From a virus (Duplodnaviria; Heunggongvirae; Uroviricota; Caudoviricetes): 39,308 bases of DNA. The notes beneath the pieces were generated by a model, which ran no database searches, was not told the origin of the DNA, and saw only the letters and a list, made by a program, of their open reading frames with translations. How positions within the stretch are numbered: the stretch's first letter is position 1; each line of letters begins with the position of its first letter. Of the stretch, positions 1-32,470 are shown one piece after another. The DNA lies in IMG/VR virus record IMGVR_UViG_2541047861_000010, positions 1 to 39,308 of that record; one strand, given 5' to 3'. Position numbers and translations under genes: made by a program.

Positions 1-2109
1 TTACACCATACTGTTAACCTGGCCGGGTAATTCGCTAGCTGGAATACGAAAGGTATACCAGGCATAACGACAGCGTTTCCACAGGCTGGAGAAATGGAGA
101 TGATAAAGGAAATCTGCAATAATTTCGTTATCTGGATATAAAGACTCGGCAAAATGTGTCCAGCGCGCACTGAGTTTCATGTTAAACAGTTTTTCATCTT
201 CTTTGTTACCATACAGGCGCGACAAAGTAATCATTGCTTCGAGCGTACCTTTATTCGCTTCTTCTTGTACCTGTTGGAGGTGCAAATGAGCAAGTGAGAG
301 TTCTTTCACCTCAAAGATATTAAGTAAAAAAAGCCCCCATGCTTTTTCATGTCCAGCTTCATGAGCCAGAAATAAATTGTCAAGGAGATTTTTTTCATAA
401 ATAGCCCGTGTTTCTTTAGAAATTTCTTGTTTATTTAGTGCCTGGTAGCAGATAGCAATGCTAAAATAAATATTTTGTAGATCTTGTTGATGTTCGCTAT
501 AACCATAATTTTTTACCAGTGGATAAGATACCGAGCTATGGAAATTTAGGTCATCTTGAAGTATTTTAAGTGCCCGTCGAAAATACTCCAAAGCTGTAGA
601 TGGTTCATAAGGTAATTTTGTATTGTCTTCCTTATCCAAATATTCAAGAGCAACTAAATTTAATGCGGCAGGAATATTTCTTTGCTTACCAATTGTCGCA
701 AGCGGAATGAAATAATCAGAAAGGTCAAACCAACTCAAATCTTTTATTGCCGACCGCCAATTATGATTGTATTTAATGTCACTAGCTTTTTCCAGCCAAG
801 CATCGCCCTGCCCTTCATCTTTTTCAAAACCCAAAATACCCTCTCGCTGGAAAAACCCCCTATAAATAACAGGTGTAGCATAAGTTGTATTCTGTGAATT
901 TTGGCAGATAAAATTATATATCCAGAATGAATCTGGATAATAACTTAATGCAAATTTTATCGCGTACGCAGTGTAATAATTATTGAGCTTCATGTCTTCC
1001 ATCACCGCTCGCTGTATACAGCACCACAACTTATCGTGATCGTTCTGCTTGTTATAGCAGGCAAGTAACCACTCTAGGGCATTATGGCGACATTCCTGAA
1101 ATTGTGCGTACTGAGCAATATTCTCTGCTAAGTCGATTGCATATTGTTGCTCCTCGGGCGCAATGTCCTCAATGCTGACATCTCGGTAATCATCCCACCA
1201 AAGTAAGAGATCCATATAGTCATGTTCTTCGGTAGATAAGTGCTTACAGGTTACTGAATCCAGCAATTCGGAAATTTCTTTATGCGACCCTCCCCAGCGT
1301 GGCATTCGAAATGGTATATATTCAACAAAAGGATAAAAAGTGTGAGGAAAAATAGTCAGACAAACAGAAAGCCAATATTTTTGCCCACCATCATCATCAT
1401 ACTCAGGAAGTATATTGGGGCGAGGCAAAACGGGGCATATTGCATGCTCAAACGAAAGTCCGGAATACGCCATCAACGCTTCCACTTCTTGCGGGGAGCG
1501 GCGGTGATAATTTTTCAGTGCGATCATTAATGGTATTCCTGCGACACTATCACCGTTAAGGTGTGCCGCCAGCCAGGCTGGCTGACCAAATACTTTTGAG
1601 TTGGTGCTGGTAAGTAATGCAGCCATCCATTGTCGTGGGTCACAATCAATTGCTTTAAGTGTAGCGATGACCATTTGTTCATTACATGCACCAGCACAAA
1701 GCCACATTGCATGTGTGGTATCATTTGCCCAGCCATAACTGCGATATAACCATGCACGGTGATTCCAGTATTGTGCTTCGGCAAGCCAGGCATGTGTAGA
1801 ATGAGGTCTTGCTTGCTGCCAGGTTTTAATGAGTCTTAAACCTTCTGTTCCGGCATCAACTAGCGTGTTCATATCATAAAAATAGTTGCACATTTGGGTC
1901 CAGGATAAAAAATAGCGCTTTTCAGCCTGACGAGAAGTGAAACTCTCCTGTAATACCTGGTTATAAATTTCATCTAGTTCCTGATAACGTTTTTCTTGTA
2001 ACATATAAGGAATATTTGCGATTTGCCATTTTCTCTCAAGAGTATTAAGTGGCATTTTTTGGTCACACATCTTTTGCATTGCACTGAGTAAACGAGCATC
2101 CTGTTCCAT
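1..2109 (-). CDS. Hypothetical cytoplasmic protein, 702 aa, Trp/Tyr-rich; last gene of an AT-rich three-gene operon
   Basis: Full ORF 1-2148; start placed at internal ATG 2107-2109 (MEQDARLL) because AAGGA sits 6 nt upstream and this avoids overlap with the upstream gene. Stop codon is at window bases 1-3. No hydrophobic N-terminus. No family recognised from memory. Confidence 0.6.
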   Translation of the reverse strand: MEQDARLLSAMQKMCDQKMPLNTLERKWQIANIPYMLQEKRYQELDEIYNQVLQESFTSRQAEKRYFLSWTQMCNYFYDMNTLVDAGTEGLRLIKTWQQARPHSTHAWLAEAQYWNHRAWLYRSYGWANDTTHAMWLCAGACNEQMVIATLKAIDCDPRQWMAALLTSTNSKVFGQPAWLAAHLNGDSVAGIPLMIALKNYHRRSPQEVEALMAYSGLSFEHAICPVLPRPNILPEYDDDGGQKYWLSVCLTIFPHTFYPFVEYIPFRMPRWGGSHKEISELLDSVTCKHLSTEEHDYMDLLLWWDDYRDVSIEDIAPEEQQYAIDLAENIAQYAQFQECRHNALEWLLACYNKQNDHDKLWCCIQRAVMEDMKLNNYYTAYAIKFALSYYPDSFWIYNFICQNSQNTTYATPVIYRGFFQREGILGFEKDEGQGDAWLEKASDIKYNHNWRSAIKDLSWFDLSDYFIPLATIGKQRNIPAALNLVALEYLDKEDNTKLPYEPSTALEYFRRALKILQDDLNFHSSVSYPLVKNYGYSEHQQDLQNIYFSIAICYQALNKQEISKETRAIYEKNLLDNLFLAHEAGHEKAWGLFLLNIFEVKELSLAHLHLQQVQEEANKGTLEAMITLSRLYGNKEDEKLFNMKLSARWTHFAESLYPDNEIIADFLYHLHFSSLWKRCRYAWYTFRIPASELPGQVNSMV

Positions 2110-2119
2110 AGATATCCTT

Positions 2120-2836
2120 TTAATTAGGTTCAAAAATTTTAAATTCATTCCACGGCAATTTTTTCCAGTTACTGGATGGATCTTTCAACCATGCAGTGAC
2201 TTCCTTTAAATCACGGTTCGCAGTGGCGACGGGGGTATCGTATATCATTAACCATTTTTGTCGGGCGCGAACATAAGCACTGGCATAATCTTCCCATGAA
2301 GCGAAACAATCTTGTGCTCTTTGAGCATTCAGTAATAACACTATCCAGGCCTGGTTTTCATCGCACCAGCCTAAACCGGCGATGCAACGAGTTAAAAAAG
2401 CAGTGCGCATACAGTCAAACGCCAGCCCATCCAGAACCTGGCCTTGTGCTGCCAGTTGTTCGTAAAAATCATGTGGAGAATTACCAAGCCCTGTAGCCCA
2501 GCGCTGTAATATAACGCCAATTTGTTGACGGAAATCTTCGTTGCTTTGGTAAGTTTCTGTTCCTAGCTCTTGTTTAACCTGTAGTGCAAGTTGTTGACGC
2601 TTATCATCAGTCAACTTTAAATCTAACGTGAAGCCATTTACTGACAGTCCATTACGACGAGCAACTATATCACCAATTGCTAATGCCCACTTACGTCTCT
2701 TTGTTGCTCGTCTTTTGTCCTTGATTAGATCCTTTTCTTTTTCTTTAGCAATAAAAGCATCGATTTGTGGTTTGTTTTTTTTGTATCTATAGATAAAAAT
2801 AAATATTGCGACCAGGAGAACAATGATAAGACTCAT
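2120..2836 (-). CDS. Hypothetical membrane-anchored protein, 238 aa, single N-terminal hydrophobic helix
   Basis: ORF with ATG start; N-terminus SLIIVLLVAIFIFIYRY followed by KKNK looks like a signal anchor. Start overlaps stop of upstream gene (TAATG). Possibly DUF1266-like, unverified. Confidence 0.6.
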   Translation of the reverse strand: MSLIIVLLVAIFIFIYRYKKNKPQIDAFIAKEKEKDLIKDKRRATKRRKWALAIGDIVARRNGLSVNGFTLDLKLTDDKRQQLALQVKQELGTETYQSNEDFRQQIGVILQRWATGLGNSPHDFYEQLAAQGQVLDGLAFDCMRTAFLTRCIAGLGWCDENQAWIVLLLNAQRAQDCFASWEDYASAYVRARQKWLMIYDTPVATANRDLKEVTAWLKDPSSNWKKLPWNEFKIFEPN

Positions 2837-4050
2837 TATTTTTCAACCTCTGACAGGGGTAAGTAATGAGATGTCTGTAATGTCAAACTCTCTATCTCAA
2901 AGGAAATGTTGCTGATATTTTGACCTGCAAATTGCGGATGCCACTCAGCGCCAGGGAATAACATTTCCGCAGAAGTAGCAACTATAGGGTCAATAGCATT
3001 AAGATAATGTAACTTATCAGGTGCGCTGTGTAACAGTAACCACTGCAACTCCACTGAAGGATTTGTAAAATGTTCTAATAAATGAAAGTTATTATGTAGT
3101 ACGCTTAGTAAAAAACTGGTTTCGTATACTTCCGTTACATATTTCCACCCCTGATATTCAGGTGTATTTTCATAAACAATACCCATACCTTCACAATCAC
3201 TATGTCGAACTGCTTGTGGTGATAATAGTTGCAAAAGAGACAAAACATCGTCCGCATATTTTTTAACTGGATGACGATTTTGCTTACCTTTTATTTGATC
3301 AATTTCAAGTGAATCACCAACAACATTGAGAGCAATAGTAACATGAGGAATATTATTATTATCACGCAAACTGAATAACCGTAATTTATGTTGCTCAATT
3401 TGATTTGCATAATACTCACCATAACCACCGGTAAGATTTTTTCGATCATCAAACTGGCCTACGCAATGTTGCATATGCCATGATTCATAAGCCATTTCAC
3501 GACGAAGGTTCGAATGACTGGCATCAAACTCAACAATTTTTCCGTCTGGCACATCAAGTATTGACTTTACAGTATTTTGTTCACTCGGCTGCCACCCTTT
3601 CTCGCGTCGTTGAAGCATCTTTTCATGCTCTTCTTCACGCATTCTGAACGCAACGTAGCAGGTTATGCGCTGTAGTTTTGATTCCAGACGGGTACCACAT
3701 TTCCTGGAAAGAAATTCCACCAACTCCCGTTCTTTGGTTAATATTTGTTGATGATCGGTTTCGATATAATAAAGTGTCGCAGTTGATACTGAGGCAGTAT
3801 TAAACTTCGATACCAGCCATTCCGGGATTACATCATCATTTTTATTAAACAGTGAATATTCTGCAAGCGAGTTAATTTGTTGCACCATTGGAAAGTCACT
3901 AATTAGCCATCGATAAAAATGGTTGAGTAACCATTTTTGGATGGTCTCATTATCCTGGCGAAACAGACTTCTTTGCAAAATTGCTGTTTTTACTTCCGGG
4001 GCATTAATTACATCCCTTGCATTATAATTCTGGTGAATATTTCCAGTCAT
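2836..4050 (-). CDS. Hypothetical protein, 404 aa; first gene of AT-rich three-gene operon
   Basis: ORF with ATG start at 4048-4050. Hand-counted GC of a 60-nt sample in this island is about 32 percent, versus about 60 percent in a prophage structural-gene sample (23161-23220). No confident domain assignment. Confidence 0.6.
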   Translation of the reverse strand: MTGNIHQNYNARDVINAPEVKTAILQRSLFRQDNETIQKWLLNHFYRWLISDFPMVQQINSLAEYSLFNKNDDVIPEWLVSKFNTASVSTATLYYIETDHQQILTKERELVEFLSRKCGTRLESKLQRITCYVAFRMREEEHEKMLQRREKGWQPSEQNTVKSILDVPDGKIVEFDASHSNLRREMAYESWHMQHCVGQFDDRKNLTGGYGEYYANQIEQHKLRLFSLRDNNNIPHVTIALNVVGDSLEIDQIKGKQNRHPVKKYADDVLSLLQLLSPQAVRHSDCEGMGIVYENTPEYQGWKYVTEVYETSFLLSVLHNNFHLLEHFTNPSVELQWLLLHSAPDKLHYLNAIDPIVATSAEMLFPGAEWHPQFAGQNISNISFEIESLTLQTSHYLPLSEVEK

Positions 4051-8128: not shown

Positions 8129-10576
8129 TTAACCGTCATGCATCATGCTGGCACGGGCGCGCGCACGTTTATCCCGCTCGTATTTTTCGAGCGCATCCTG
8201 TAACTGGCGGTCAAGCTGTGTCCCCGGCGCAGTACCACCCGTCAGGCTGATGTGATATTCGTTTTTACTCTGGTCTACATAAGAGCGGCCAGCCGGTGCC
8301 GTGACCGGCTGATAAGCCTGATAGCCTGCATAAGAGCTGGTCGCCGGAATATAACCACCGCTGCCATACGTGGCGGCTTGAGTTCTGGCGGCGGTCTGGT
8401 CAAGTGTGTCTGACTCTTTGTTGATAACACCGAGTTTTTCCAGTACCCAGTCAATGCCGCTGCGCAGTTTGTTGAACGCATTAAGCGGCAGCATCAGCGC
8501 GTCAGCCAGTGCCTGCCCGAACATGACCCCCGTGTCACGGCAACGGTTCAGGGTGTCCTGAGTGGCTTTGACCGGGGCAATCAGGTTTTTAAACCACTGC
8601 CACGCGGCCTGTAACTTTTCACCCAGCCAGTCAAACACCGGCTTAAGTGGCGTGAACAGTTCCCCCACCGGCGCAAATGCCACTTTCAGCCCTTCAACCA
8701 CACCGCCAAAGAATGCGCTGACAGGCTCCCAGTATTTACGGATAAGCAACGCCCCGGCGACAATGGCGGCCACCACGGCCACAACCGGCCAGCTAATAGC
8801 CCCGATGGCGGTCATAACAGCACTGCCAACCGTCGTGAAGACTGCCCCCATTGCGCCTGCTGCCGCGATGATGGCATTGATGCCGGTGATAACCGGCCAG
8901 GCTACAAGACCAATTGCACCGATGATGCCAGTCAGCGCCAGCGCGCCACCGACAATGAGGCCGATGGTTGACGCCAGTGATTTGTTTTTCTGGATCCAGC
9001 CGTCGAGTTTTAACACATACTTTGTGGCCGTCTGCGTGAGCTTACGCAGCGCGCCTTCCTGCTGGTCAAACAGGTCAGTCCCCACCGCCTCATAAGCGGA
9101 CTGAAACTCTTTAAAGTCACCGCCTAGGTTGTCCTGCATGATATTTACCAGCTCGGCGGTCTTCCCGTCTGAGGCTTTAAACGCAGCGGTCAGTTTGTCC
9201 AGCTTTCCGGTTGAGGCGGCAGTCATCAGCACGGCGGCGGCTGAGCTGGCCTCCTCCCCGAAAATAGTTTTCATGTATTCAGCCTGCTGGGCAGTACCGA
9301 GCCGGTTTTTCTCAAAACTGGCCTGCATTTCTTTCAGAATGGTAAATACTGGCCGGGTGTTTCCCTTGCTGTCTGAGGTTTTCACACCAAGCTCTTTGAG
9401 TGCATCCCATGCTTTTCCCGTCGGTGCCTGCAGGCGGCTTAACACGGCACGGCTTCCCGTCCCCGCTATTGAACCGGTAATTTTTGCATCATGCAGCGCC
9501 CCGACCATTGCGGCGGTTTCTTCAATGCTGACACCGGCATTTTTTGCCACAGGTGCGGCATAGGTCAGCGCATCGCTCATGCCGTCAAAATCGGCGGCGG
9601 TTTTGTTCATCGTCATGGAGAGAACATCCCCGATATGAGCGACCTTATCGTTTGAAAGCTGAAAGGCGGATTTCATCCCCATCAGCAGGGCGGCGTTTTC
9701 TTCCATCGTGCGACGGTTCGCCAGCGCCATATTCAGCGTGACCGGCGTTGCCGCCTGAATGGCATCAACATCCCCACCCGCTTTCGCGATGATTATCTGT
9801 GCACCGGCCGCATCATCCGCCGAGGCGGCGGTATTGTCGCCGAGCTGGCGCGCCTGTTTGCGTAGTGCGGTCATTTCGGCGGAGTCTTTTGCCACTCCGA
9901 GCACGGCCTGCAATTCTGAGTTTTTCTGCGCAAACTCATAACCGGGCATCAGCAACTTAACTCCGGCCATCGTTCCCGCCGCCGCAATCCCCACACCGGC
10001 AGCGCCCACCGAGGCCATATTTCCGGCCAGTTCCTTTCCGGCCTGATAACGCTGTTTTACTGCATTAAGTTTTGCCTGTTGCGCACTGACACGCGCCAGC
10101 GCGTCACGCTGCCGGTTAAGCTGTGCGGTGGTTTCACTGATACGGTTTTTCAGTCCCTGCTCATCATGTGCAAGATTGCGGGTATTAATTCCCACAGCGG
10201 CCAGTTCCCGCTGCTGGCGCTTAACGGAATCCGTCAGGCGGTTATATTTCGCCTGTAAGTCCTCCGCCGCACGCTTTGCGGATTCCAGCACTTTCGCCTG
10301 AGCACGGGTCGGACGTTCAGTGTTTTTAAACTGTGTGGCAAGGGCTTCGGCTTCCTGCCGTGCCTTTTCAAGTGCATGACCAGTCACGGCAAGCTGTGCG
10401 CTGGTCTTGCGAAATCCCTCAATACGGGATGCGTGACCGTTCAGCTCGCGCAGTGATTTTTGTGTTTCCCGGATATCCCCCGACAGCGACTTACTCGCTG
10501 TGCGGATGGATTTAAACGGGCGGGATGCCTGGTCAACAGCCCTGAGCAATACCTGTAATTTTACATTGTTACTCAT
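8129..10576 (-). CDS. T: Tail tape measure protein gpT (815 aa)
   Basis: 815 aa, Ala/Gln-rich coiled-coil N-half and hydrophobic Gly/Ala-rich segment; start ATGAGTAAC overlaps the E' stop as in P2. Confidence 0.9.
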   Translation of the reverse strand: MSNNVKLQVLLRAVDQASRPFKSIRTASKSLSGDIRETQKSLRELNGHASRIEGFRKTSAQLAVTGHALEKARQEAEALATQFKNTERPTRAQAKVLESAKRAAEDLQAKYNRLTDSVKRQQRELAAVGINTRNLAHDEQGLKNRISETTAQLNRQRDALARVSAQQAKLNAVKQRYQAGKELAGNMASVGAAGVGIAAAGTMAGVKLLMPGYEFAQKNSELQAVLGVAKDSAEMTALRKQARQLGDNTAASADDAAGAQIIIAKAGGDVDAIQAATPVTLNMALANRRTMEENAALLMGMKSAFQLSNDKVAHIGDVLSMTMNKTAADFDGMSDALTYAAPVAKNAGVSIEETAAMVGALHDAKITGSIAGTGSRAVLSRLQAPTGKAWDALKELGVKTSDSKGNTRPVFTILKEMQASFEKNRLGTAQQAEYMKTIFGEEASSAAAVLMTAASTGKLDKLTAAFKASDGKTAELVNIMQDNLGGDFKEFQSAYEAVGTDLFDQQEGALRKLTQTATKYVLKLDGWIQKNKSLASTIGLIVGGALALTGIIGAIGLVAWPVITGINAIIAAAGAMGAVFTTVGSAVMTAIGAISWPVVAVVAAIVAGALLIRKYWEPVSAFFGGVVEGLKVAFAPVGELFTPLKPVFDWLGEKLQAAWQWFKNLIAPVKATQDTLNRCRDTGVMFGQALADALMLPLNAFNKLRSGIDWVLEKLGVINKESDTLDQTAARTQAATYGSGGYIPATSSYAGYQAYQPVTAPAGRSYVDQSKNEYHISLTGGTAPGTQLDRQLQDALEKYERDKRARARASMMHDG

Positions 10577-13433: not shown

Positions 13434-16214
13434 TTACACCTGTGCGACGTTATACCATGTGCCATTGATGTATTTTTGTATCGGTCTGAAGATGGCTTCA
13501 TCATCGCCATCAACTTCACCAATAATTCTTAATCCGGTAAGTGTGTGTCCGGCCATCTCATAACGCCCGCCACGCGCCATCAATTGAACAACACGTGTTC
13601 CCAGGCGAACATCCATCACATAACGCCCGTCGAAATTACCGTAGTTACTTGGCACAACTTGTCCGGCAACAGTTAATCCATGGCCAATAGTGACTCCACC
13701 AGTGGAATTCTGAATATAGAATGGCCTTAAACTACTCCATCCCCCCATACTGTCACCGGAGTTGGTCAACATGAAATGGGTGAAATTACCATCATTTCGG
13801 ATAAAGAATCCATAGTTCCCACATACGATGCGATAACCGTTTGCTGACCTTGAAACAACTTCCCCATCAACAGTTAAACCGCCTGTAATAGTGCCACCGG
13901 ATATCGGTAAAGCACCAACATCACCAGCGGATGGTTTATGTGCTGTCGTATAAAGCTGTGCCCATCCAGACCACTGAGCGTCATCTGTATCCCGCCTTGA
14001 ACGAATATATGCTGGTGCATGAGCACCGCTGGTTCCACTCCAGCCGATAAGTAACTCACCTTCTCCGGTTGCGGATACCCCCGTAAGATGAAGCACATTG
14101 CCATAGGCATAAGGGTAGCCATTGTTATATGCCTCATACATCTGAATACCAGGCACCCCCTTCTCACTCCCGCTTAATGCAGCAACGCGATTCCTGGATA
14201 CCAGCGTATTAATATTGATATTGCCAGAACCATCAAATTTCACGCCGTTAATTGTCCTTGCCGTTTTCAGCTTTGTAGCTGTAGCCGCATTGCCGGACAG
14301 TTCGCCTGAAAGACCGGCGCTGAAGGTTTGTTTCGCCGCCCATGTCTGAGCTTCGTCGATAATTGGCACACGTCTTGTCGTGATCGTGCGGCTTCCCGGA
14401 TTTCCTGAAATACGCACCATAAAAAAGCGGTAGTTGGCTTTACTTACAGTGCTGCGCCATACATGCATTGAGCGCCCCGTACCGGAATCATCACTCGGAC
14501 CAACTGCGATGTTTATCAGGTTGCCATCAATGACGCCCCAGTCCATACCGTCGGGAATGTGGGTCATGTTATCAAGCCGAACGGTTATCAGACTGCCCGG
14601 CACAAAGTCGTAGGTCTGCCAGTCCAGGCTGGAGAGTTTTGCCACAGCGCCACCGATGCCCAGATTCAGAGGCAACGAAAAGGAGTTATATACTTCTCGC
14701 CATTCGGTCCATTTGCTCCCGGCGTAGACGCGCTCAAAAGTGCGTCCCTGTGTGGTTTCTGATTTCCCTGTGGTTGTGTAACGCTGCCAGACAGACACAC
14801 CATCAAAACGTCTGATTACTTCCAGTATCCCAAGTAGTGTCGCGCCAACGGTGTCCAGCATCGGACCGTTTGTTGCCTTTCCTGTAACACTGTAAATACC
14901 GGGGTCGGTTAGAACATTTAAATCACCCTCGTAATAACGACTCTCTGACTGATGACCGATTCTTAACCACGGTTCCCACTGCGGATTTGATGCATCCCAG
15001 CTTGCCGCAAGGCAGCGGACATACATATTTCCACGGCGAGTGGTATAACGTTGCGTTCTTCCATAATTCCCGCCTTCGAGGATCTCAAGCGTCCCCTGAG
15101 CAAAGCCGCCTTCCTCTGGATAATTGCGTTCATATGAAGCTATAGCCGAGCTACTGTTACGCCATAAACCAAGATGCTCGGCGGCTCCAAGCGTATTCAG
15201 GTCTATAGTCGTACTCAAAGGGCGGGTAGCAGATTGAGTGTGACGCCATACGCCCCACGGACCATCAGTGCCATTCCACTTATTGGCGAGTTTACGCATG
15301 TATACATTGCCGTCTCTCGTGGTAAAGCGTTGAGTACCTGCAAAATTGCCGGCAGCAAAAACCTCAAGCACACCGACAGCATTATCTTCCGGGAAATTTT
15401 TCTCCAGTGTTGCGTTAGTTGAGGTAGCTTTAGACCAGATCCCCAGATAAGCCTTAACGGGACCAAATGTATTCAGGTCGGCATCAACCGGCATTTCGCC
15501 ATTGTTTTTCATAAACGTCAGGCTGGTAACGCCAACATTGTCCAGAAAAGCTGATTTATCCTGGATATCTGCACCGTTCTGATTTTTCGCCAGACGTGAA
15601 TTTGCGTTGTCATTTGCTGCCTTGACCGCTTTTGGCGTTGCCGCCAATGACTCACTGGTGCTGTTTGTTGCACTGCTTAACTGAGTAAAACCTTTTTCTG
15701 TCAGCGTGGCGTCAGGATGGCGGCGGGACTGCTCATGCTCTGCGATTTTGTCATCGACATAATCCTGAGTCGCCATCACCGTGCTGGCATCAATACTCAG
15801 TTCAACGGACGCCACGTTGCTGAGAATAATAACCATGCGACAGGTCTGCGCACGCCCGGAGCCTTCAGCCAGTTCTGGCTTATAGCTTTCTGCCATGTTG
15901 GATACCGCAATCAGTGTTCCGGCATCGTCATACAGACCAAGCTCACGCATCCAGAAGCCGCCCACTTCGGGCGGTACAACCAGTTCAGCCACGATATAGT
16001 TTTTATTCTTATTATCCACGCTGACTTTATTCAGAGCGTGACGCCAGACCTCATGCACCAGTTTCGTCTGACCGGCATCCGGCACCGGCAATTTGCCATT
16101 ACCATCACCCACGGCCATTGCAGACAGGTTTACTTTTTTCCCGCCGGGGACAGTGGCGGCTGCCAGCTTTGCGGCTCCGGCAGTAGTGATAACGGTTTTA
16201 AATTTCGTGCTCAT
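13434..16214 (-). CDS. H: Tail fibre protein gpH (926 aa) with P2-like N-terminus and divergent longer C-terminal receptor-binding region
   Basis: N-terminus [25 protein letters not shown]... resembles P2 H (about 669 aa as I recall); C-terminus ends ...[17 protein letters not shown], a tail-fibre tip motif. Confidence 0.85.
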
Positions 16215-17660: not shown

Positions 17661-18008
17661 TCAACTCACAGGGATGGTTAACGAAAGTGGCTGGCCGGTG
17701 TCGTTGTGCTGGCCGGTTAACGTAACTGTCATTCGCCCGTCAAAGCTGCGCGCCGTGGTGACGGATGACAGGGTGACGCGGGGTTCCCATTTCAGCACCG
17801 CCATGTAACAGGCGACCTTAATCTGCAACTCAAGCGCCGGGGTCTGCGGCTGGTCAATCATTGACGCCAGCAACGAGCCGTAATCACGCCGCATCACCCG
17901 TGAGCCGACCGGTGTGCGCAGGATATCGCCGATACTCTGGCTGATATGCTCAAGGTCAGTGACAGTCAGGCCATCACTGCGATTCATTCCGAGATAACGC
18001 GCTGTCAT
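17661..18008 (-). CDS. W: Baseplate protein gpW (115 aa)
   Basis: Length and synteny match P2 W. Confidence 0.9.
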   Translation of the reverse strand: MTARYLGMNRSDGLTVTDLEHISQSIGDILRTPVGSRVMRRDYGSLLASMIDQPQTPALELQIKVACYMAVLKWEPRVTLSSVTTARSFDGRMTVTLTGQHNDTGQPLSLTIPVS

Positions 18009-18646
18009 TTTGTCCCCTGTGTCCAGTTGTCTCCTGACTTAACACCACCGTGACCGTGGTCATCCACCTGAACGCCGTTAGACGTGAATTTCCCGTCGGT
18101 ATGCTCGATGTTGCCGTGCATCTTCCCGCCCTTCTGCACTTCCAGCGTGCCGGTAGTCAGTTTGTTAGTGCAGACCACTTCCGGTGTGTCCAGGGTGATG
18201 CGGGTTGACGCTTTCACCATGACCACCGGCACCGTGGCAGTAACAGAATCAGAAGCCGTCACGCTGGCCGTTTTAATTCCGCTTACCGTGAGTGCACTGG
18301 TTTCAGGTTCATACTCAATCACCGCCCCGTCAGGGAAACGGATATGCAGGGCATCCGCCGACGCAGACGGCGCGGGGTTATCGCCGGAATAAATCCCCGG
18401 CAGAACGAACGCCGTGTCGAGTTCACCGCCCACGGCCAGAATCAGCACCTGTTCCCCCACGGAAGGTGCCCACCATGTGCGCGAACGCCCGGCACGATGG
18501 GTCAGCCACTGAAGCCAGTCGGTGCACATGCCGCCGGTCTGCACACGGCAGCGACCGGCGTTAAGGTCGGTTTCGACGACAAGACCGGTGCGGATCATAT
18601 TGCGCAGTGCGCGCGCGAGTTCCTGGATATTTGATAGTGTGCTCAT
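18005..18646 (-). CDS. V: Baseplate spike protein gpV (213 aa)
   Basis: Start set at MSTLSNIQELARALRNMIRTG... by recalled similarity to the P2 V N-terminus; the longer upstream extension in the ORF track has no RBS. Confidence 0.85.
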   Translation of the reverse strand: MSTLSNIQELARALRNMIRTGLVVETDLNAGRCRVQTGGMCTDWLQWLTHRAGRSRTWWAPSVGEQVLILAVGGELDTAFVLPGIYSGDNPAPSASADALHIRFPDGAVIEYEPETSALTVSGIKTASVTASDSVTATVPVVMVKASTRITLDTPEVVCTNKLTTGTLEVQKGGKMHGNIEHTDGKFTSNGVQVDDHGHGGVKSGDNWTQGTK

Positions 18647-18692
18647 ATGACAATAATGGGGAACATATGCTCGAAAAACTATTGCAACCCGT

Positions 18693-18710
18693 TGTATCAT
18701 TTTCGGCACA
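18693..18710. promoter_or_regulatory. Candidate Ogr-box dyad TGT-N12-ACA in the V/moron divergent intergenic region
   Basis: TGTATCATTTTCGGCACA read directly; it has the recalled P2 late-promoter dyad form. Its spacing to the V start does not fit the canonical -55 position, so the assignment is tentative. Confidence 0.3.
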
Positions 18711-18729
18711 ACCAAGAAGGAGCCGAAGC

Positions 18730-19473
18730 ATGGATAAATATCAAATCTGGGAAAAACAAAAAGACACCATCGCCCATAAAGAATATTTAAAAATTTCCGA
18801 CACCAATTTACTTGGACATATACACATTGCCAATTATGAGGTGATTCAAAGTGAATTAAGCAAATTCAACTCTCCTGAAATTGTACTCCACTACTCACTT
18901 AATAGAAATGAATTAAAAAAAGAGAGCATAAATATATCAAGACATTTTCTCAACTATATCTCCTCAGCATTATCACTTAGAGATTCAACTCGAAATCTAC
19001 ATAAAATTAATGTGTTAAATATTGATAACATTACCAATAAATCCAGAGAAATCATCAATGAAGAATTTTTAAAAAATCCAATCATCAAATTAATGGAGGA
19101 TTTAAGAAACATCCTAACCCATCAAAAAATGATCTCCCCATTAATATCATCATTTATGCACCTCCAGAAAAAAATAAACATACACGGATTTGCATTTAAG
19201 ATTGAAACCATACTGGAGAATGACCGACTTTCTGGTAAATCAAAAGAATACCTGAAGTCAACAGAACAAAAAAATTTATTCATCTTGCCGATAATAGAGG
19301 AATACCAATACACAACTCTTAAATACCAGCACTGGCTTTTAGCTTGTATCCACAATGCTCATCAAAATACATACCCAGAATACTGGGAAGCAAGAAAAAA
19401 CATAATGGACGTCTGGGGTGGAGATATCCAACTAATACCTGAAGAGAGTGCCCTCACTTATTTGACCAGATAA
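18730..19473 (+). CDS. Hypothetical protein (247 aa), AT-rich moron at the P2 orf30 position between V and S
   Basis: ATG at 18730 with AAGGAG 10 nt upstream; hand-counted GC of a 60-nt sample is about 22 percent; opposite strand to all flanking tail genes. No recognisable domain. Confidence 0.7.
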   Translation: MDKYQIWEKQKDTIAHKEYLKISDTNLLGHIHIANYEVIQSELSKFNSPEIVLHYSLNRNELKKESINISRHFLNYISSALSLRDSTRNLHKINVLNIDNITNKSREIINEEFLKNPIIKLMEDLRNILTHQKMISPLISSFMHLQKKINIHGFAFKIETILENDRLSGKSKEYLKSTEQKNLFILPIIEEYQYTTLKYQHWLLACIHNAHQNTYPEYWEARKNIMDVWGGDIQLIPEESALTYLTR

Positions 19474-19506
19474 CAATCTAATTAGCTCACAAACATAAGA
19501 CACCTT

Positions 19507-19529
19507 GGCCACGATATTTTATCGTGGCC
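19507..19529 (+). terminator. Possible terminator hairpin after the moron
   Basis: Hairpin GGCCACGAT-ATTTTA-ATCGTGGCC; the downstream T-tract is weak (TTATAT). Confidence 0.35.
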
Positions 19530-19686
19530 TTATATGATAAAGCGACTACCTTCTATGAGCCCTTATAACTCTCATCCACTGCACATTTTCAAGTTACAAT
19601 TAAAGTTCATTTAGTTGAAATATAAAAAGGATGCCGTAAGAGGATAATGGCGATATTTCATCAATAAGGCGCAAGAAATGGCACAA

Positions 19687-20139
19687 CTAACGGTCGAGGT
19701 GAGCCAGAATAATCTCTTCAATCATCTGCACATCCTCACCGGTAAAGCCGAGCAGGGGACGCGCCGGATAATCAATTTTCTTACCGTCTTTCCGGGTTTC
19801 TTCCGACAGACCGAACTGATGCACACTGGCGATTTTCGGTGACTTCCCGCCGTAAAACTCCATTGATGCCTGCTCCGGGCTGGCGCGGATATGCAAAAAA
19901 CGACTGGTGATAAGTTTCGCAAACATTTTTCGCTTAACACGACCGGTCTTTTTTCTGGCGCTCTGCTGCTGGCGTGGCGCGTAGGGTGTGCCGTCCGGGG
20001 CTTTCTGTGCCATCACCCGACGCTGCTGACTCTGCCGCAGACGTTTCGCCAGTTCGGCACTCAGTCGCCGACGCCCTGACGGTGACAGCGATTCAATCAG
20101 TCCGGTCAGCCGGTCTTCAAAACGCTTAAACTCATTCAT
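19687..20139 (-). CDS. S: Tail completion protein gpS (150 aa)
   Basis: Length and synteny match P2 S. Confidence 0.9.
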   Translation of the reverse strand: MNEFKRFEDRLTGLIESLSPSGRRRLSAELAKRLRQSQQRRVMAQKAPDGTPYAPRQQQSARKKTGRVKRKMFAKLITSRFLHIRASPEQASMEFYGGKSPKIASVHQFGLSEETRKDGKKIDYPARPLLGFTGEDVQMIEEIILAHLDR

Positions 20140-29182: not shown

Positions 29183-30250
29183 TCATTTCTTAGCTTTCAC
29201 AACCGGATGCGCGCGATCATGTCCACCGCCACGATGCTTAGAAAATATAACCTTTTCATTAGTAAAAGGTTTTTGGCCATAGACACTATCATAGTGGAAA
29301 AAGACGTTCGGAAGATGAGGCACACGGATGAATCCATACTTCACTCTAGTATCACCGATGACCCCAAAAACCCTTGTACTTACTGGGTAGCATAGTTCAC
29401 CACAACGCATCACTAATTCATCTGCTGTTGGGCGTTCAGAAGGTTCCAATTTTAAACAATCTTCTATAAGTTTAATTATTTCATTTGCCAATGGCGCATA
29501 CTGTCTATTTGAAAATATAAAGTCAGGGTAAGGAACATGCGTGCCAGAAAGTATTTTTGGTATAGCCATATAACCAATACCAAAAGGGTATTTTCCAGTA
29601 AGAATCCTGAACATCATCGCACCCAATGCCCAAATATCTGTAGGTTTCGAAACCTTACCTTGACTCTGTATGATTTCCGGTGCCATATATGGCAAAGCCC
29701 CGATAGCCGTTTGCGAAGAACTAATTGAATCTTGACCATTTCTTGCAGCCTCATCAATTTCATCTCCGGCCATCTTTGAAATGCCGAAATCCGTAATTTT
29801 TATCTCTGTAGCATTGATACCACCGCCTACCATTATATTTGAAGGTTTGAGGTCCCGGTGTATGACGTCAACATGATGCGAAGCAGACAGAGCTTTAGCT
29901 AAATTATGAAATATTTTAGCAGTTAAATATGGATCAACACTTGAATAAGTGTCTAAAATAGCCTTATCCAAGTCAACTCCATCAATAAATTCCTCCGTTA
30001 AAAACTCTCTACCCTCATCATCAATGAAGTAATCTAAGGTTTTAGCCACATTAGGATGATTAACCCTTGATGCTAATATTGCACTTCTATGAAACCTTTT
30101 TTCAGCAGATTTATTTTTGGGAGTTTTGAGAGCCACATGCCTCGAGAGAATATTATCCATTGCCAAATAAACTTTTTGCATACCGCCTTCACCAATCTCC
30201 CTCAATATTGTATATCTGCTAACTTGAATTCCTGGAGTCAGATTTATCAT
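29183..30250 (-). CDS. Hanks-type Ser/Thr protein kinase with C-terminal cold-shock-like (OB-fold) domain (355 aa)
   Basis: Kinase motifs present: G-loop GEGGMQKV, VALK lysine, HRDLKPSN, DFG, APE. C-terminal 60 aa (VFGVIGDTRVKYGFIRVPHLPNVFFHYDSVYG...EKVIF) aligns by eye to the CspA pattern. AT-rich; start overlaps upstream stop (ATGA). Confidence 0.85.
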   Translation of the reverse strand: MINLTPGIQVSRYTILREIGEGGMQKVYLAMDNILSRHVALKTPKNKSAEKRFHRSAILASRVNHPNVAKTLDYFIDDEGREFLTEEFIDGVDLDKAILDTYSSVDPYLTAKIFHNLAKALSASHHVDVIHRDLKPSNIMVGGGINATEIKITDFGISKMAGDEIDEAARNGQDSISSSQTAIGALPYMAPEIIQSQGKVSKPTDIWALGAMMFRILTGKYPFGIGYMAIPKILSGTHVPYPDFIFSNRQYAPLANEIIKLIEDCLKLEPSERPTADELVMRCGELCYPVSTRVFGVIGDTRVKYGFIRVPHLPNVFFHYDSVYGQKPFTNEKVIFSKHRGGGHDRAHPVVKAKK

Positions 30251-31311
30251 AACACCACCTCCGGATGGGAAAGGTCAAATGTAATGAAGACCCGCTCTTT
30301 TCTTGGCCGAGAAGTCTCTCCCAGAATAATAACACATGAATCAGGCAAAATATTATATTGCTTTGCAGCTATATTATTCACATACACCTCACCACTTAAA
30401 CTCGATATATAAAACTCTGAACCAGAATATTTCACCTCAATAGTCCCGACCCCTGAATTATTAAAAGCCGCAGATTTATTTGTTGAAGAAATGATGACGG
30501 GTGGAGTGTTATCAGAGATTAACAATGCTCTATGAGAGTTGTAGAGAACGAATTTTTTTAGAGTCTGACACACATCAGCCATATCAGGTCTCTCACAAGG
30601 ATTCGTATCTAAACATTGGAAAAGCAATTCTTTTACCTGAGTTGGTAACTGTATATTAGAATTATCAAAAGGATTAGACAATAATTTTTTGGGTAAAACT
30701 CTCATTTCCGGTGGTAGTGGGGTCTTAGCCAAAAACATGGCCGTTACAGCAAAAGCATATGTATCTATGGATTTTGTAAACGCTACTTGATGTAAAAATA
30801 ATTCAGGTGCAGCATATGTTGGGGTTCCTTTAAAACCTATTGTATTAGCTTCATCAACATTTCTAGATAGTCCGAAGTCATAAATCTTCACTACTCCCTC
30901 AGAATCAATTTTCATGTTCCCAGGCTTGATATCCCTATGAATAATATCATGAGAATGTATCTCAGAAATACCCGAAGATATTTGCCACAAAATTTTAATC
31001 AGATCTTCAGAATTTAATATGCGATCCTCTACTTCCAATAATGAAGGTCCGTCAACATACTCTTCGACTATAGCAATTCCTTTACCTTGATAATTAATAA
31101 CATCATAAAGCTCTACTACATGTTTTGATCTTAATTTCATCAATGCTGATAACTCATCCATCATTCGAGGAGAATCATCAGGATTACTTATGGACTTTAT
31201 AGCGACAAATCTTTCGAGGTGAGTATCCAAGCATTTGATCACGCAACCAAATCCTCCCGAAGCCTCTTCTTCAGTCCTCTTATATCTTGCAGGGAGAGTA
31301 AAATTAGTCAT
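30247..31311 (-). CDS. Hanks-type Ser/Thr protein kinase with C-terminal FHA-like domain (354 aa)
   Basis: Kinase motifs present: GGFGCV, VAIK, HRDIKPGN, DFG, APE. C-terminal segment (SSLSGEVYVNNIAAKQYNILPDSCVIILGE) resembles the FHA signature. RBS AAGGAG 7 nt upstream. Confidence 0.85.
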   Translation of the reverse strand: MTNFTLPARYKRTEEEASGGFGCVIKCLDTHLERFVAIKSISNPDDSPRMMDELSALMKLRSKHVVELYDVINYQGKGIAIVEEYVDGPSLLEVEDRILNSEDLIKILWQISSGISEIHSHDIIHRDIKPGNMKIDSEGVVKIYDFGLSRNVDEANTIGFKGTPTYAAPELFLHQVAFTKSIDTYAFAVTAMFLAKTPLPPEMRVLPKKLLSNPFDNSNIQLPTQVKELLFQCLDTNPCERPDMADVCQTLKKFVLYNSHRALLISDNTPPVIISSTNKSAAFNNSGVGTIEVKYSGSEFYISSLSGEVYVNNIAAKQYNILPDSCVIILGETSRPRKERVFITFDLSHPEVVL

Positions 31312-32470
31312 CTTTATCTCCTTTAGTGGAGTTTTTCTCAGAGAATGAAATATCTAACTGTGAAATATTATCTAACTTATCATTATTGTTAGCTTCGATA
31401 ACATTCCTTCCCTCATCACTCTTTATATTACTATTTTTTTTCTTTGTACGTGATTTCCTTTTCGATACATTTTTTTTGTTAGAAATTTCATTACTGCATT
31501 CTAACTCAGTAACTTTTCTATCAATAACATTTTCAACCGTAGCTGAGTTAGGTATATCTAACGGCGCAGGTTGCACGCTAATTACTTTCATCTCACCAAA
31601 AGGATCCCATAAATTAATTACATCCCCAGATGATACATCCAAAGCACTTAGGATGTTCGAAATCTCAACTACCGCAATCGACGCATTATCAAATCCACCA
31701 AACCAACTAGCTAGATCTATAACTCTTTTAGCGAACACTCCAGTATTATTGGAGTGAGCATATAATTTTCTCAAATTATTACTGTCAATGGTATGAGCAC
31801 CATCTGAAGTTAATGCAACCACCCCAGGTACGAGCCGAATATCGTGAAAATGTATCTCAAGAACACCATCAAGACCTATAAACTGTACTAACTCGCCACC
31901 TAACCTAGAATCAATAACACCTGAGTCACTACCAAGATGCTCATTATATTTCTTTGCCAATACAGCTAATGTATCATCCTCACTAATTTGTTTTATGTGT
32001 TCAGCATTAATGGAATATATGCGACTATCCCCGACATTTATTGCTGTAATGTTATCGGAGTCATCTACAGCTAAGGCAGATAACGTAGCCCCACCGTTCC
32101 CATTATATACTTTCAAAACCGATTCATTTGCTTTTAAAACGGCGATTTCAAGACATTGTCTAATTGGCAAGCCTGAGTGTTTAATTATCTCGGTAAAAAA
32201 AGATGATACGGTCAATGAAGCAGCATTCGCTCCCCCTTCCATCCCCCCCATACCATCTGCTAAAGCGATGACAATCATGTCCTTATTCTTACTAAAAGGA
32301 CGAAATTTTAATACAGCTACCCGGTCTTGGTTCTCTTTCCTAACTAAACCTATGTCTGTAGCAATAGCTGCAGGTAGCATAGATACTCTTCGTACAGATG
32401 AAGAGATATTTTTTCTATGCAGCCAAGCGTGTATCTGTTCATGAAGGATCTCGTAAGAGTCTCGACTCAC
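31304..32470 (-). CDS. PP2C-family Ser/Thr protein phosphatase with Lys-rich disordered C-terminal tail (388 aa)
   Basis: PP2C motifs ALADGMGG, VGDSR and TSDG read in the translation. GTG start with GAGGAGG 4 nt upstream; 3' end overlaps the downstream kinase start by 8 nt (ATGACTAA). Confidence 0.8.
   Translation of the reverse strand: MSRDSYEILHEQIHAWLHRKNISSSVRRVSMLPAAIATDIGLVRKENQDRVAVLKFRPFSKNKDMIVIALADGMGGMEGGANAASLTVSSFFTEIIKHSGLPIRQCLEIAVLKANESVLKVYNGNGGATLSALAVDDSDNITAINVGDSRIYSINAEHIKQISEDDTLAVLAKKYNEHLGSDSGVIDSRLGGELVQFIGLDGVLEIHFHDIRLVPGVVALTSDGAHTIDSNNLRKLYAHSNNTGVFAKRVIDLASWFGGFDNASIAVVEISNILSALDVSSGDVINLWDPFGEMKVISVQPAPLDIPNSATVENVIDRKVTELECSNEISNKKNVSKRKSRTKKKNSNIKSDEGRNVIEANNNDKLDNISQLDISFSEKNSTKGDKDD

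Follow-up and report, generated by a model that had tools for sequence, protein, structure and literature searches.

What does a single AT-rich gene do between two tail genes of a P2-like prophage, on the strand opposite to both? We address this question for a 39,308-nucleotide stretch of Caudoviricetes DNA (IMG/VR record IMGVR_UViG_2541047861_000010, positions 1 to 39,308; hereafter, the window), which contains a P2-like prophage inserted between trhP and yegR. The gene under study, here called the cargo gene, occupies positions 18730–19473 on the + strand. It lies between the baseplate spike gene V (18005–18646, − strand), the first gene of the pV late operon, and the tail completion gene S (19687–20139, − strand), the last gene of the O late operon. 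The surrounding segment is a horizontally acquired single-gene accessory cassette at this inter-operon boundary. Judged by sequence comparison, the cargo protein belongs to an unnamed family spread over bacteria and archaea, and at its conserved site it at least looks like a HEPN nuclease. Our working interpretation, which we hold at slightly less than even confidence, is a stand-alone HEPN-like abortive-infection (Abi) or exclusion gene that would act in the lysogen.

The cargo open reading frame (ORF) is intact, with an ATG start, 744 nt including the stop codon, and 247 encoded amino acids; its product is annotated as hypothetical protein WP_021522796.1 in Escherichia coli FY26. Window positions 18600–19700 are 100% identical to E. 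coli FY26 and NCTC11151. An earlier note, made from the DNA letters alone, had described a 247-aa ORF with a ribosome-binding site on the strand opposite to V and S. Coordinates and strands agree with that description, and a Shine–Dalgarno sequence, AAGGAG (18717–18722, + strand), lies 7 nt before the ATG; AGAAGGA is kept in four of four aligned homologous loci. The note's estimate of about 22% GC was too low. The ORF has 32.1% GC (33.5% at third codon positions), compared with 58.9% for V and 54.7% for S, and only its AT-richest 100-nt stretch falls to 20%. The ratio of nonsynonymous to synonymous substitution rates is 0.18 against a variant of 81% identity and 0.08 between two 58%-identical homologues; on these sequence comparisons, the gene is real and its protein is under purifying selection. 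Two IMG/VR copies of the same gene (L021 and L029, 98% identity) have AGG in place of the ATG at the equivalent of 18730–18732, and these copies are either inactivated or start from another codon.

The signals around the ORF were also compared with what had been predicted. The claim that the gene has its own upstream region stands insofar as the ATGs of V and of the cargo gene are divergent and 83 bp apart, but a dedicated promoter is not established. A weak sigma-70 candidate, TCGAAA-18 nt-TATCAT (18671–18700, + strand), matches the consensus at 9 of 12 positions, and promoter-like matches around the gene do not exceed the number in shuffled sequence. The TATCAT hexamer (18695–18700) is invariant in homologous loci, a conservation that is ambiguous because the hexamer overlaps a TGT-N12-ACA dyad (18693–18710, − strand) belonging to the V operon. 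We read this dyad from the sequence as the presumed Ogr-type activator site of the late promoter pV because the distance of its center from the V ATG, 55.5 nt, equals the spacing annotated in the P2 reference NC_001895 (10239–10266, with V at 10308). The dyad ends 7 nt before the cargo Shine–Dalgarno sequence. Given the overlap with the −10-like hexamer, binding of Ogr might impede transcription of the cargo gene and vice versa.

Downstream of the ORF, the predicted hairpin is present as a perfect 10-bp inverted repeat with a 3-nt loop (19507–19529; GGCCACGATA-ttt-TATCGTGGCC). An 87-nt fold (−19.7 kcal/mol; z = −3.8 relative to shuffled sequences) has this repeat as its main stem, and in the 81%-identical variant (L002) one stem pair is changed from A:T to G:C, a compensatory substitution. 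This hairpin is probably the terminator of the cargo gene and possibly also that of the converging O operon; a consensus terminator scan missed it because its U-tract is weak (UUAUAU).

Alignment of the filled site with empty sites defines the limits of the acquired DNA. Homology to empty-site phages ends 9 nt past the S stop codon and resumes 2 nt before the V ATG, and a cassette of 1029 bp (18649–19677, about 33.5% GC) therefore replaces the ~66-bp S–V spacer of those phages. The cassette is bordered at 19679–19686 and 18704–18711 by an 8-bp direct repeat (GTTGTGCC when read from S to V). The S-proximal copy is the counterpart of the activator site's left half in empty-site phages, and the repeat may represent a target that was duplicated or a scar left by recombination.

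The order of elements is the one found in P2. In NC_001895, S is followed by a putative O-operon terminator, Orf30 on the opposite strand, the pV activator-binding site, and V, and the window has the same layout, with its hairpin on the S side. P2 Orf30 (NP_046770.1, 261 aa, nonessential, function unknown) thus shares with the cargo gene its locus, its opposite-strand orientation, its AT-richness, and a place flanked by the O-operon terminator on one side and the pV activator site on the other. The two proteins are not homologues, however: BLASTP detects no similarity (E = 2.6), and Orf30 has several hydrophobic segments whereas the cargo protein is soluble. The S–V site has been known to be variable for some twenty years. 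In P2-like phages, orf30 was described as one of three regions of acquired genes (Lynch et al. 2010, PMC3091744). More recent surveys covered the gpA–gpQ hotspot (Rousset 2022, PMC9122126) or gpA–gpQ together with fun/Z (Vassallo 2022, PMC9519451), and the S–V site was not analysed in either; a 2026 survey places a defence hotspot among the tail genes, "downstream of GpL", without giving detail (PMC13586616).

Occupancy of the site, a comparison that the earlier note had called for, was determined in 80 P2-like contigs from IMG/VR, all with a gpS that shares at least 99% identity with that of the window. The S–V junction is empty in 69 of these, with a spacer of 64–69 bp. The other 11 are filled by one of three unrelated AT-rich genes, each the single opposite-strand ORF of an insert with ~34% GC. 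Two contigs carry a 1043-bp insert with the cargo gene (98% identical), five a 943-bp insert encoding a P2-Orf30-type membrane protein (261 aa, several hydrophobic segments, 84% identity to P2 Orf30), and four a 1259-bp insert encoding a 357-aa protein with C-terminal hydrophobic helices. Neither the Orf30-type nor the 357-aa protein has a match above threshold in Pfam or any match in PADLOC. These two alternative S–V cargos (the L066-type and L067-type inserts) are both unannotated. The earlier description of the gene as an AT-rich moron (a prophage accessory gene) at the P2 orf30 position is thus borne out by the P2 layout and the polymorphic occupancy: the gene is present or absent at one site among close relatives, deviates in GC content, and has its own probable terminator hairpin.

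A broader survey of 5426 complete E. coli genomes places the cargo gene among the rarer occupants. gpS is found in 1470 of the genomes, more than a quarter, and the cargo gene in 16 (12 at >95% identity, 4 at 81%); the Orf30 type occurs in 460 and the 357-aa type in 60. More divergent P2-like prophages carry homologues of the cargo gene, 57–59% identical, at the same site and in the same orientation. Phage R18C has another S–V gene (MN016939, 9380–10120; 246 aa, weak HNH and Endonuclease_I matches). We considered this 741-bp ORF as a possible homologue and rejected it, as it is unrelated and co-directional with the tail genes. The "261-bp ORF30 of P2" in the R18C paper appears to be a slip for 261 aa.

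To what does the cargo protein belong? Nothing meaningful was found for it in Pfam or NCBIfam, and tblastn returned zero matches in 50,697 phage genomes (INPHARED) and 72,556 plasmids. It matches PHROG 12680, a family of unknown function, over its full length. Every name given in databases is "hypothetical protein", and literature searches with protein accessions retrieved no paper. Split or truncated copies occur in some genomes (E. coli 600468, H21; P0299, 126 aa), and such copies make up separate PHROGs for the N- and C-terminal halves (phrog_23007 and phrog_26242). A word-indexed search yielded six clusters only; their alignment then seeded an exhaustive HMMER search, which recovered 318 family representatives at E ≤ 1e-3 from bacteria and archaea. 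Most members are ~240 aa long and some ~700 aa. The longer relatives (P0102, P0168, and about 20 others of 690–720 aa) share a conserved C-terminal extension of ~450 aa, which has no match in Pfam, PADLOC, or PDB sequences and could be a sensor or a second effector domain.

Family members behave as solitary genes. We fetched 57 loci, from Bacillota, Cyanobacteria, Alpha-, Beta-, and Gammaproteobacteria, Campylobacterota, Bacteroidota, Chloroflexota, Acidobacteriota, and the archaea Methanothrix and Thermococci, and called the family ORF in 52. Across these 52 loci, neither a Pfam scan of 148 flanking ORFs nor an all-against-all BLAST revealed a conserved neighbour, in line with the earlier description of a single-gene factor. 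No adjacent antitoxin gene recurs, and an upstream XRE-type helix–turn–helix gene was seen at a single locus, where a 242-aa relative lies 24 nt downstream of it. That relative adjoins a restriction-modification-like module, with a T5orf172/ResIII protein and an Eco57I-type methyltransferase, and the same mobile element encodes a DUF927 domain protein. In Pantoea and Pseudomonas, the ~700-aa forms are inserted singly between housekeeping genes. In 40 of 41 loci, the GC content of the family gene is below that of its flanks (mean difference −11 GC points, Wilcoxon p = 3.5e-8). This pattern is that of a horizontally mobile solo module.

Conservation was scored on alignments of 66 and 126 members with 16–52% identity to the query. 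Three residues, N75, R126, and H131, never vary (R126 and H131 in 126 of 126 members), and N35, R71, R88, Y192, and W202 are more than 90% conserved. Residue 127 is Asn in 102 of the 126 members, Gln in 6, His in 5, and Asp in 4. The family core motifs are (E)xxRLLHNFxASAxSL[VI][DE]HTR and FVxDLRNYxLH, which in the window protein read NISRHFLNYISSALSLRDSTR and LMEDLRNILTH. The second contains an invariant Rx4H motif of HEPN type, R126-N127-I-L-T-H131 (codons at 19105–19122, + strand), although the earlier note had recognised no motif in the protein. Strict invariance of R-[N/D/H]-x3-H at less than 25% identity, across bacteria and archaea, points to catalysis.

We next consider this motif in a predicted structure. 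An AlphaFold run with 6 close homologues was poor (predicted local distance difference test, pLDDT, of 61) and was replaced by a model built from the 66-sequence alignment, with a pLDDT of 94.7 and a predicted template modelling score of 0.90. The model is all-alpha with one beta-hairpin insert (138–157). It comprises long helices at 14–44, 59–90, and 185–214, a short helical hairpin (98–114/117–131), and C-terminal helices. The protein is soluble and of 29 kDa, with no transmembrane segment (maximum Kyte–Doolittle 19-residue mean 0.53), and the beta-hairpin is polar.

HEPN proteins are recognised by Rx4-6H with a polar Asn, Asp, or His directly after the Arg, located at the end of a core helix where the loop to the next core helix starts (PMC3710099). 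In the family studied here, four residues separate R126 from H131 and the residue after the Arg is polar. The model places the motif correspondingly: it forms the predicted last turn of helix 117–131, ending exactly at H131, and a loop leads to the next long helix. Helix 59–90 carries family residues E68-x2-R71 and [D/E]85-x2-R88 (acidic in 115 of 126 members), whereas the conserved acidic residue of HEPN helix 2 usually stands in Ex3[KR], with a spacing of x3; where the family has E68, the window protein has N68.

Several further observations weigh against assigning the protein to this superfamily. The query, the family consensus sequences, and the members are without a match to any Pfam HEPN model, the sole exception being one member among 126 that matches pEK499_p136 (PF18736) at E = 0.006; Pfam scans of 66 and of 126 members brought up no family repeatedly. 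Aligned with hhalign against a 49-sequence pEK499_p136 profile, the family gives a probability of 3.5% over 24 columns, which place its RNx3H on the R[NH]x3H of pEK499_p136; with pEK499_p136 as a single sequence, likewise only the motif was aligned, and the two proteins differ in length (166 versus 247 aa). Searches of PDB sequences with phmmer and hmmsearch returned noise only (TRF2, tropinone reductase), Foldseek found nothing at E ≤ 0.001 in PDB or BFVD, and the fold matches are non-specific, to generic helical bundles only. The motif helix is short and hairpins with helix 98–114, and any mapping onto the four canonical HEPN core helices is therefore tentative. Membership of the HEPN superfamily is thus not demonstrated, and the likeness we propose is one of the conserved site.

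The closest known systems include the HepT toxins of MNT-HEPN pairs (PDB 7ae2, 8xdj), HI0074 (1jog), and YutE (1ylm), as well as the single-gene HEPN Abi proteins AbiD/AbiF (Pfam Abi_2), AbiJ, AbiU2, and AbiV (Anantharaman et al. 2013, PMC3710099). With the latter, the cargo protein shares its stand-alone occurrence on a mobile element, an all-alpha architecture, the lack of a cognate antitoxin gene, and a conserved R-[N/D/H]-x3-H at a helix end, but it has no detectable sequence or profile similarity to the HEPN Abi Pfam families. A second comparison is with the P2 genes old, tin, and fun(Z) and the gpA–gpQ and Z/fun hotspots, which are likewise AT-rich, nonessential, swappable cargo of P2-like prophages; relative to old, tin, and fun(Z), the cargo gene differs in locus and shows no homology. 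Our assignment of an Abi or exclusion role rests on analogy with the single-gene HEPN Abi proteins and these exclusion genes. The same prophage carries PD-T4-6-like defence kinases in its gpA–gpQ hotspot.

Under this interpretation, the cargo protein would be a HEPN-like metal-independent endoribonuclease whose active site consists of R126, N127, and H131, with N75 and R88 of the preceding long helix in a supporting role. The lysogen would produce it from its own promoter and hold it inactive until an incoming heterologous phage triggers cleavage of host or phage RNA (tRNA, mRNA, or rRNA), aborting the infection. Single-gene HEPN Abi proteins are thought to act by such triggered RNA cleavage. 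In the short form, the beta-hairpin and helical elaborations might serve as the sensing or autoinhibitory part, and in the ~700-aa relatives the ~450-aa extension might take the place of such elaborations. Beyond the HEPN arguments above, some results count against an immunity role. PADLOC-DB v2.0.0 has no match to the cargo protein, and a PADLOC scan of 66 family members gave scattered weak noise only. Distant relatives lie mostly amid ordinary genes and not in defence islands, and the promoter that the mechanism calls for is weak or unproven.

Some of these same observations lend themselves to a different explanation, a non-nuclease lysogenic-conversion or fitness factor. The conserved Asn, two Arg, and His residues would then form a ligand- or protein-binding site on a novel helical fold, and the role of the protein would lie in tuning a host process, for example stress response or regulation, and not in defence against phages. 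No nuclease homology is demonstrable, distant relatives mostly neighbour housekeeping genes, and fold searches give only generic helical bundles, all as such a factor would allow. The strict invariance of R-[N/D/H]-x3-H at such low identity fits it poorly, as do the patchy AT-rich solo-gene distribution typical of conflict systems and the location in a prophage accessory locus beside other exclusion-type cargo. We regard this explanation as unlikely, while giving it appreciable weight.

The cargo protein might alternatively be a toxin with an unrecognised partner, a variant of the Abi interpretation with a different control; the antitoxin would be a host factor, or a small RNA or peptide encoded in the 213 bp of AT-rich DNA at 19474–19686. 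Antitoxins are frequent for HEPN toxins (PMC3710099), the 213 bp of non-coding DNA are conserved in the 81% variant, and one distant relative follows the XRE-type gene described above. Against a partner, no neighbouring ORF is conserved in the 52 loci, an Rfam scan of the cassette gave no match, and the homologues L004 and L005 have only ~100 bp downstream. This leaves the toxin variant improbable. We judge equally slim the prospect that the gene benefits the phage itself, in the lytic cycle or against rivals, as an anti-defence or anti-satellite (anti-P4) factor. Its place inside the late region, with a 5′ end overlapping the Ogr-dependent pV activator site, could couple expression to the lytic switch, and counter-defence genes are likewise hypervariable accessory genes; however, it is transcribed against the late operons, and the majority of the family sits singly on chromosomes, outside phage contexts, in many phyla, archaea included.

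A small ClyA-like membrane-damaging or pore-forming effector was suggested by the best Foldseek matches, which are of ClyA type. We rejected it as very improbable: these matches are not significant, with E = 0.03–1, a TM-score of ~0.2, and a root-mean-square deviation of >20 Å, no segment is hydrophobic, the hairpin is polar, and polar, catalytic-like residues make up the invariant positions. A dispensable accessory protein of the virion or of tail assembly, for which the position between tail genes V and S would speak, is scarcely credible and was rejected, because 69 of the 80 phages with near-identical S lack the gene, its strand is opposite and its base composition foreign, it is absent from the 50,697 deposited phage genomes, and Pfam, PADLOC, PHROG, INPHARED, and family searches showed no homology to structural or housekeeping phage proteins; clear homology of that kind is what the earlier note had named as contradicting its proposal.

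The cargo gene is accordingly best described as a prophage-borne candidate immunity gene of a familiar kind and not as a new type of system. A bolder claim, which we consider doubtful, is that bacteria and archaea contain a new, widespread family of solo immunity genes of HEPN RNase type, missing from Pfam and PADLOC, of which the cargo gene would be the first phage-borne member to be recognised. The S–V junction would in that case be a third P2 defence hotspot, with at least three uncharacterised single-gene systems (the cargo gene, P2 Orf30, and the 357-aa membrane-anchored protein). The gpA–gpQ and Z/fun hotspots have already been the source of many new defence systems. The present analysis defines a compact, clonable 1-kb cassette, names R126 and H131 as residues of interest, and places the gene in a bacterial and archaeal family that comprises at least 318 sequence clusters and is annotated in no database. 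If the immunity role is true, a new defence family would be named and the orf30 locus given a role; if it is not, the P2 orf30 locus would carry something other than immunity.

Three other regions of the window deserve mention. In the gpA–gpQ hotspot (29183–32470, − strand), two Ser/Thr kinases are encoded together with a PP2C phosphatase; both kinases match PADLOC PD-T4-6 and mad6 (best E values 1e-32 to 1e-54), and the phosphatase has no PADLOC match. In the FY26 RefSeq annotation, the tail-fibre (H) region (window 13931–16214; 15332–17615 in L001) is entered as a pair of incomplete pseudogenes separated by an unannotated gap, and the tail fibre of the prophage may be disrupted or mosaic. 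Finally, the chromosomal flank left of the prophage (1–4050), a low-GC block (34–40%) with genes for DUF4034, DUF1266, and PcfJ-domain proteins, probably represents a further acquired island.
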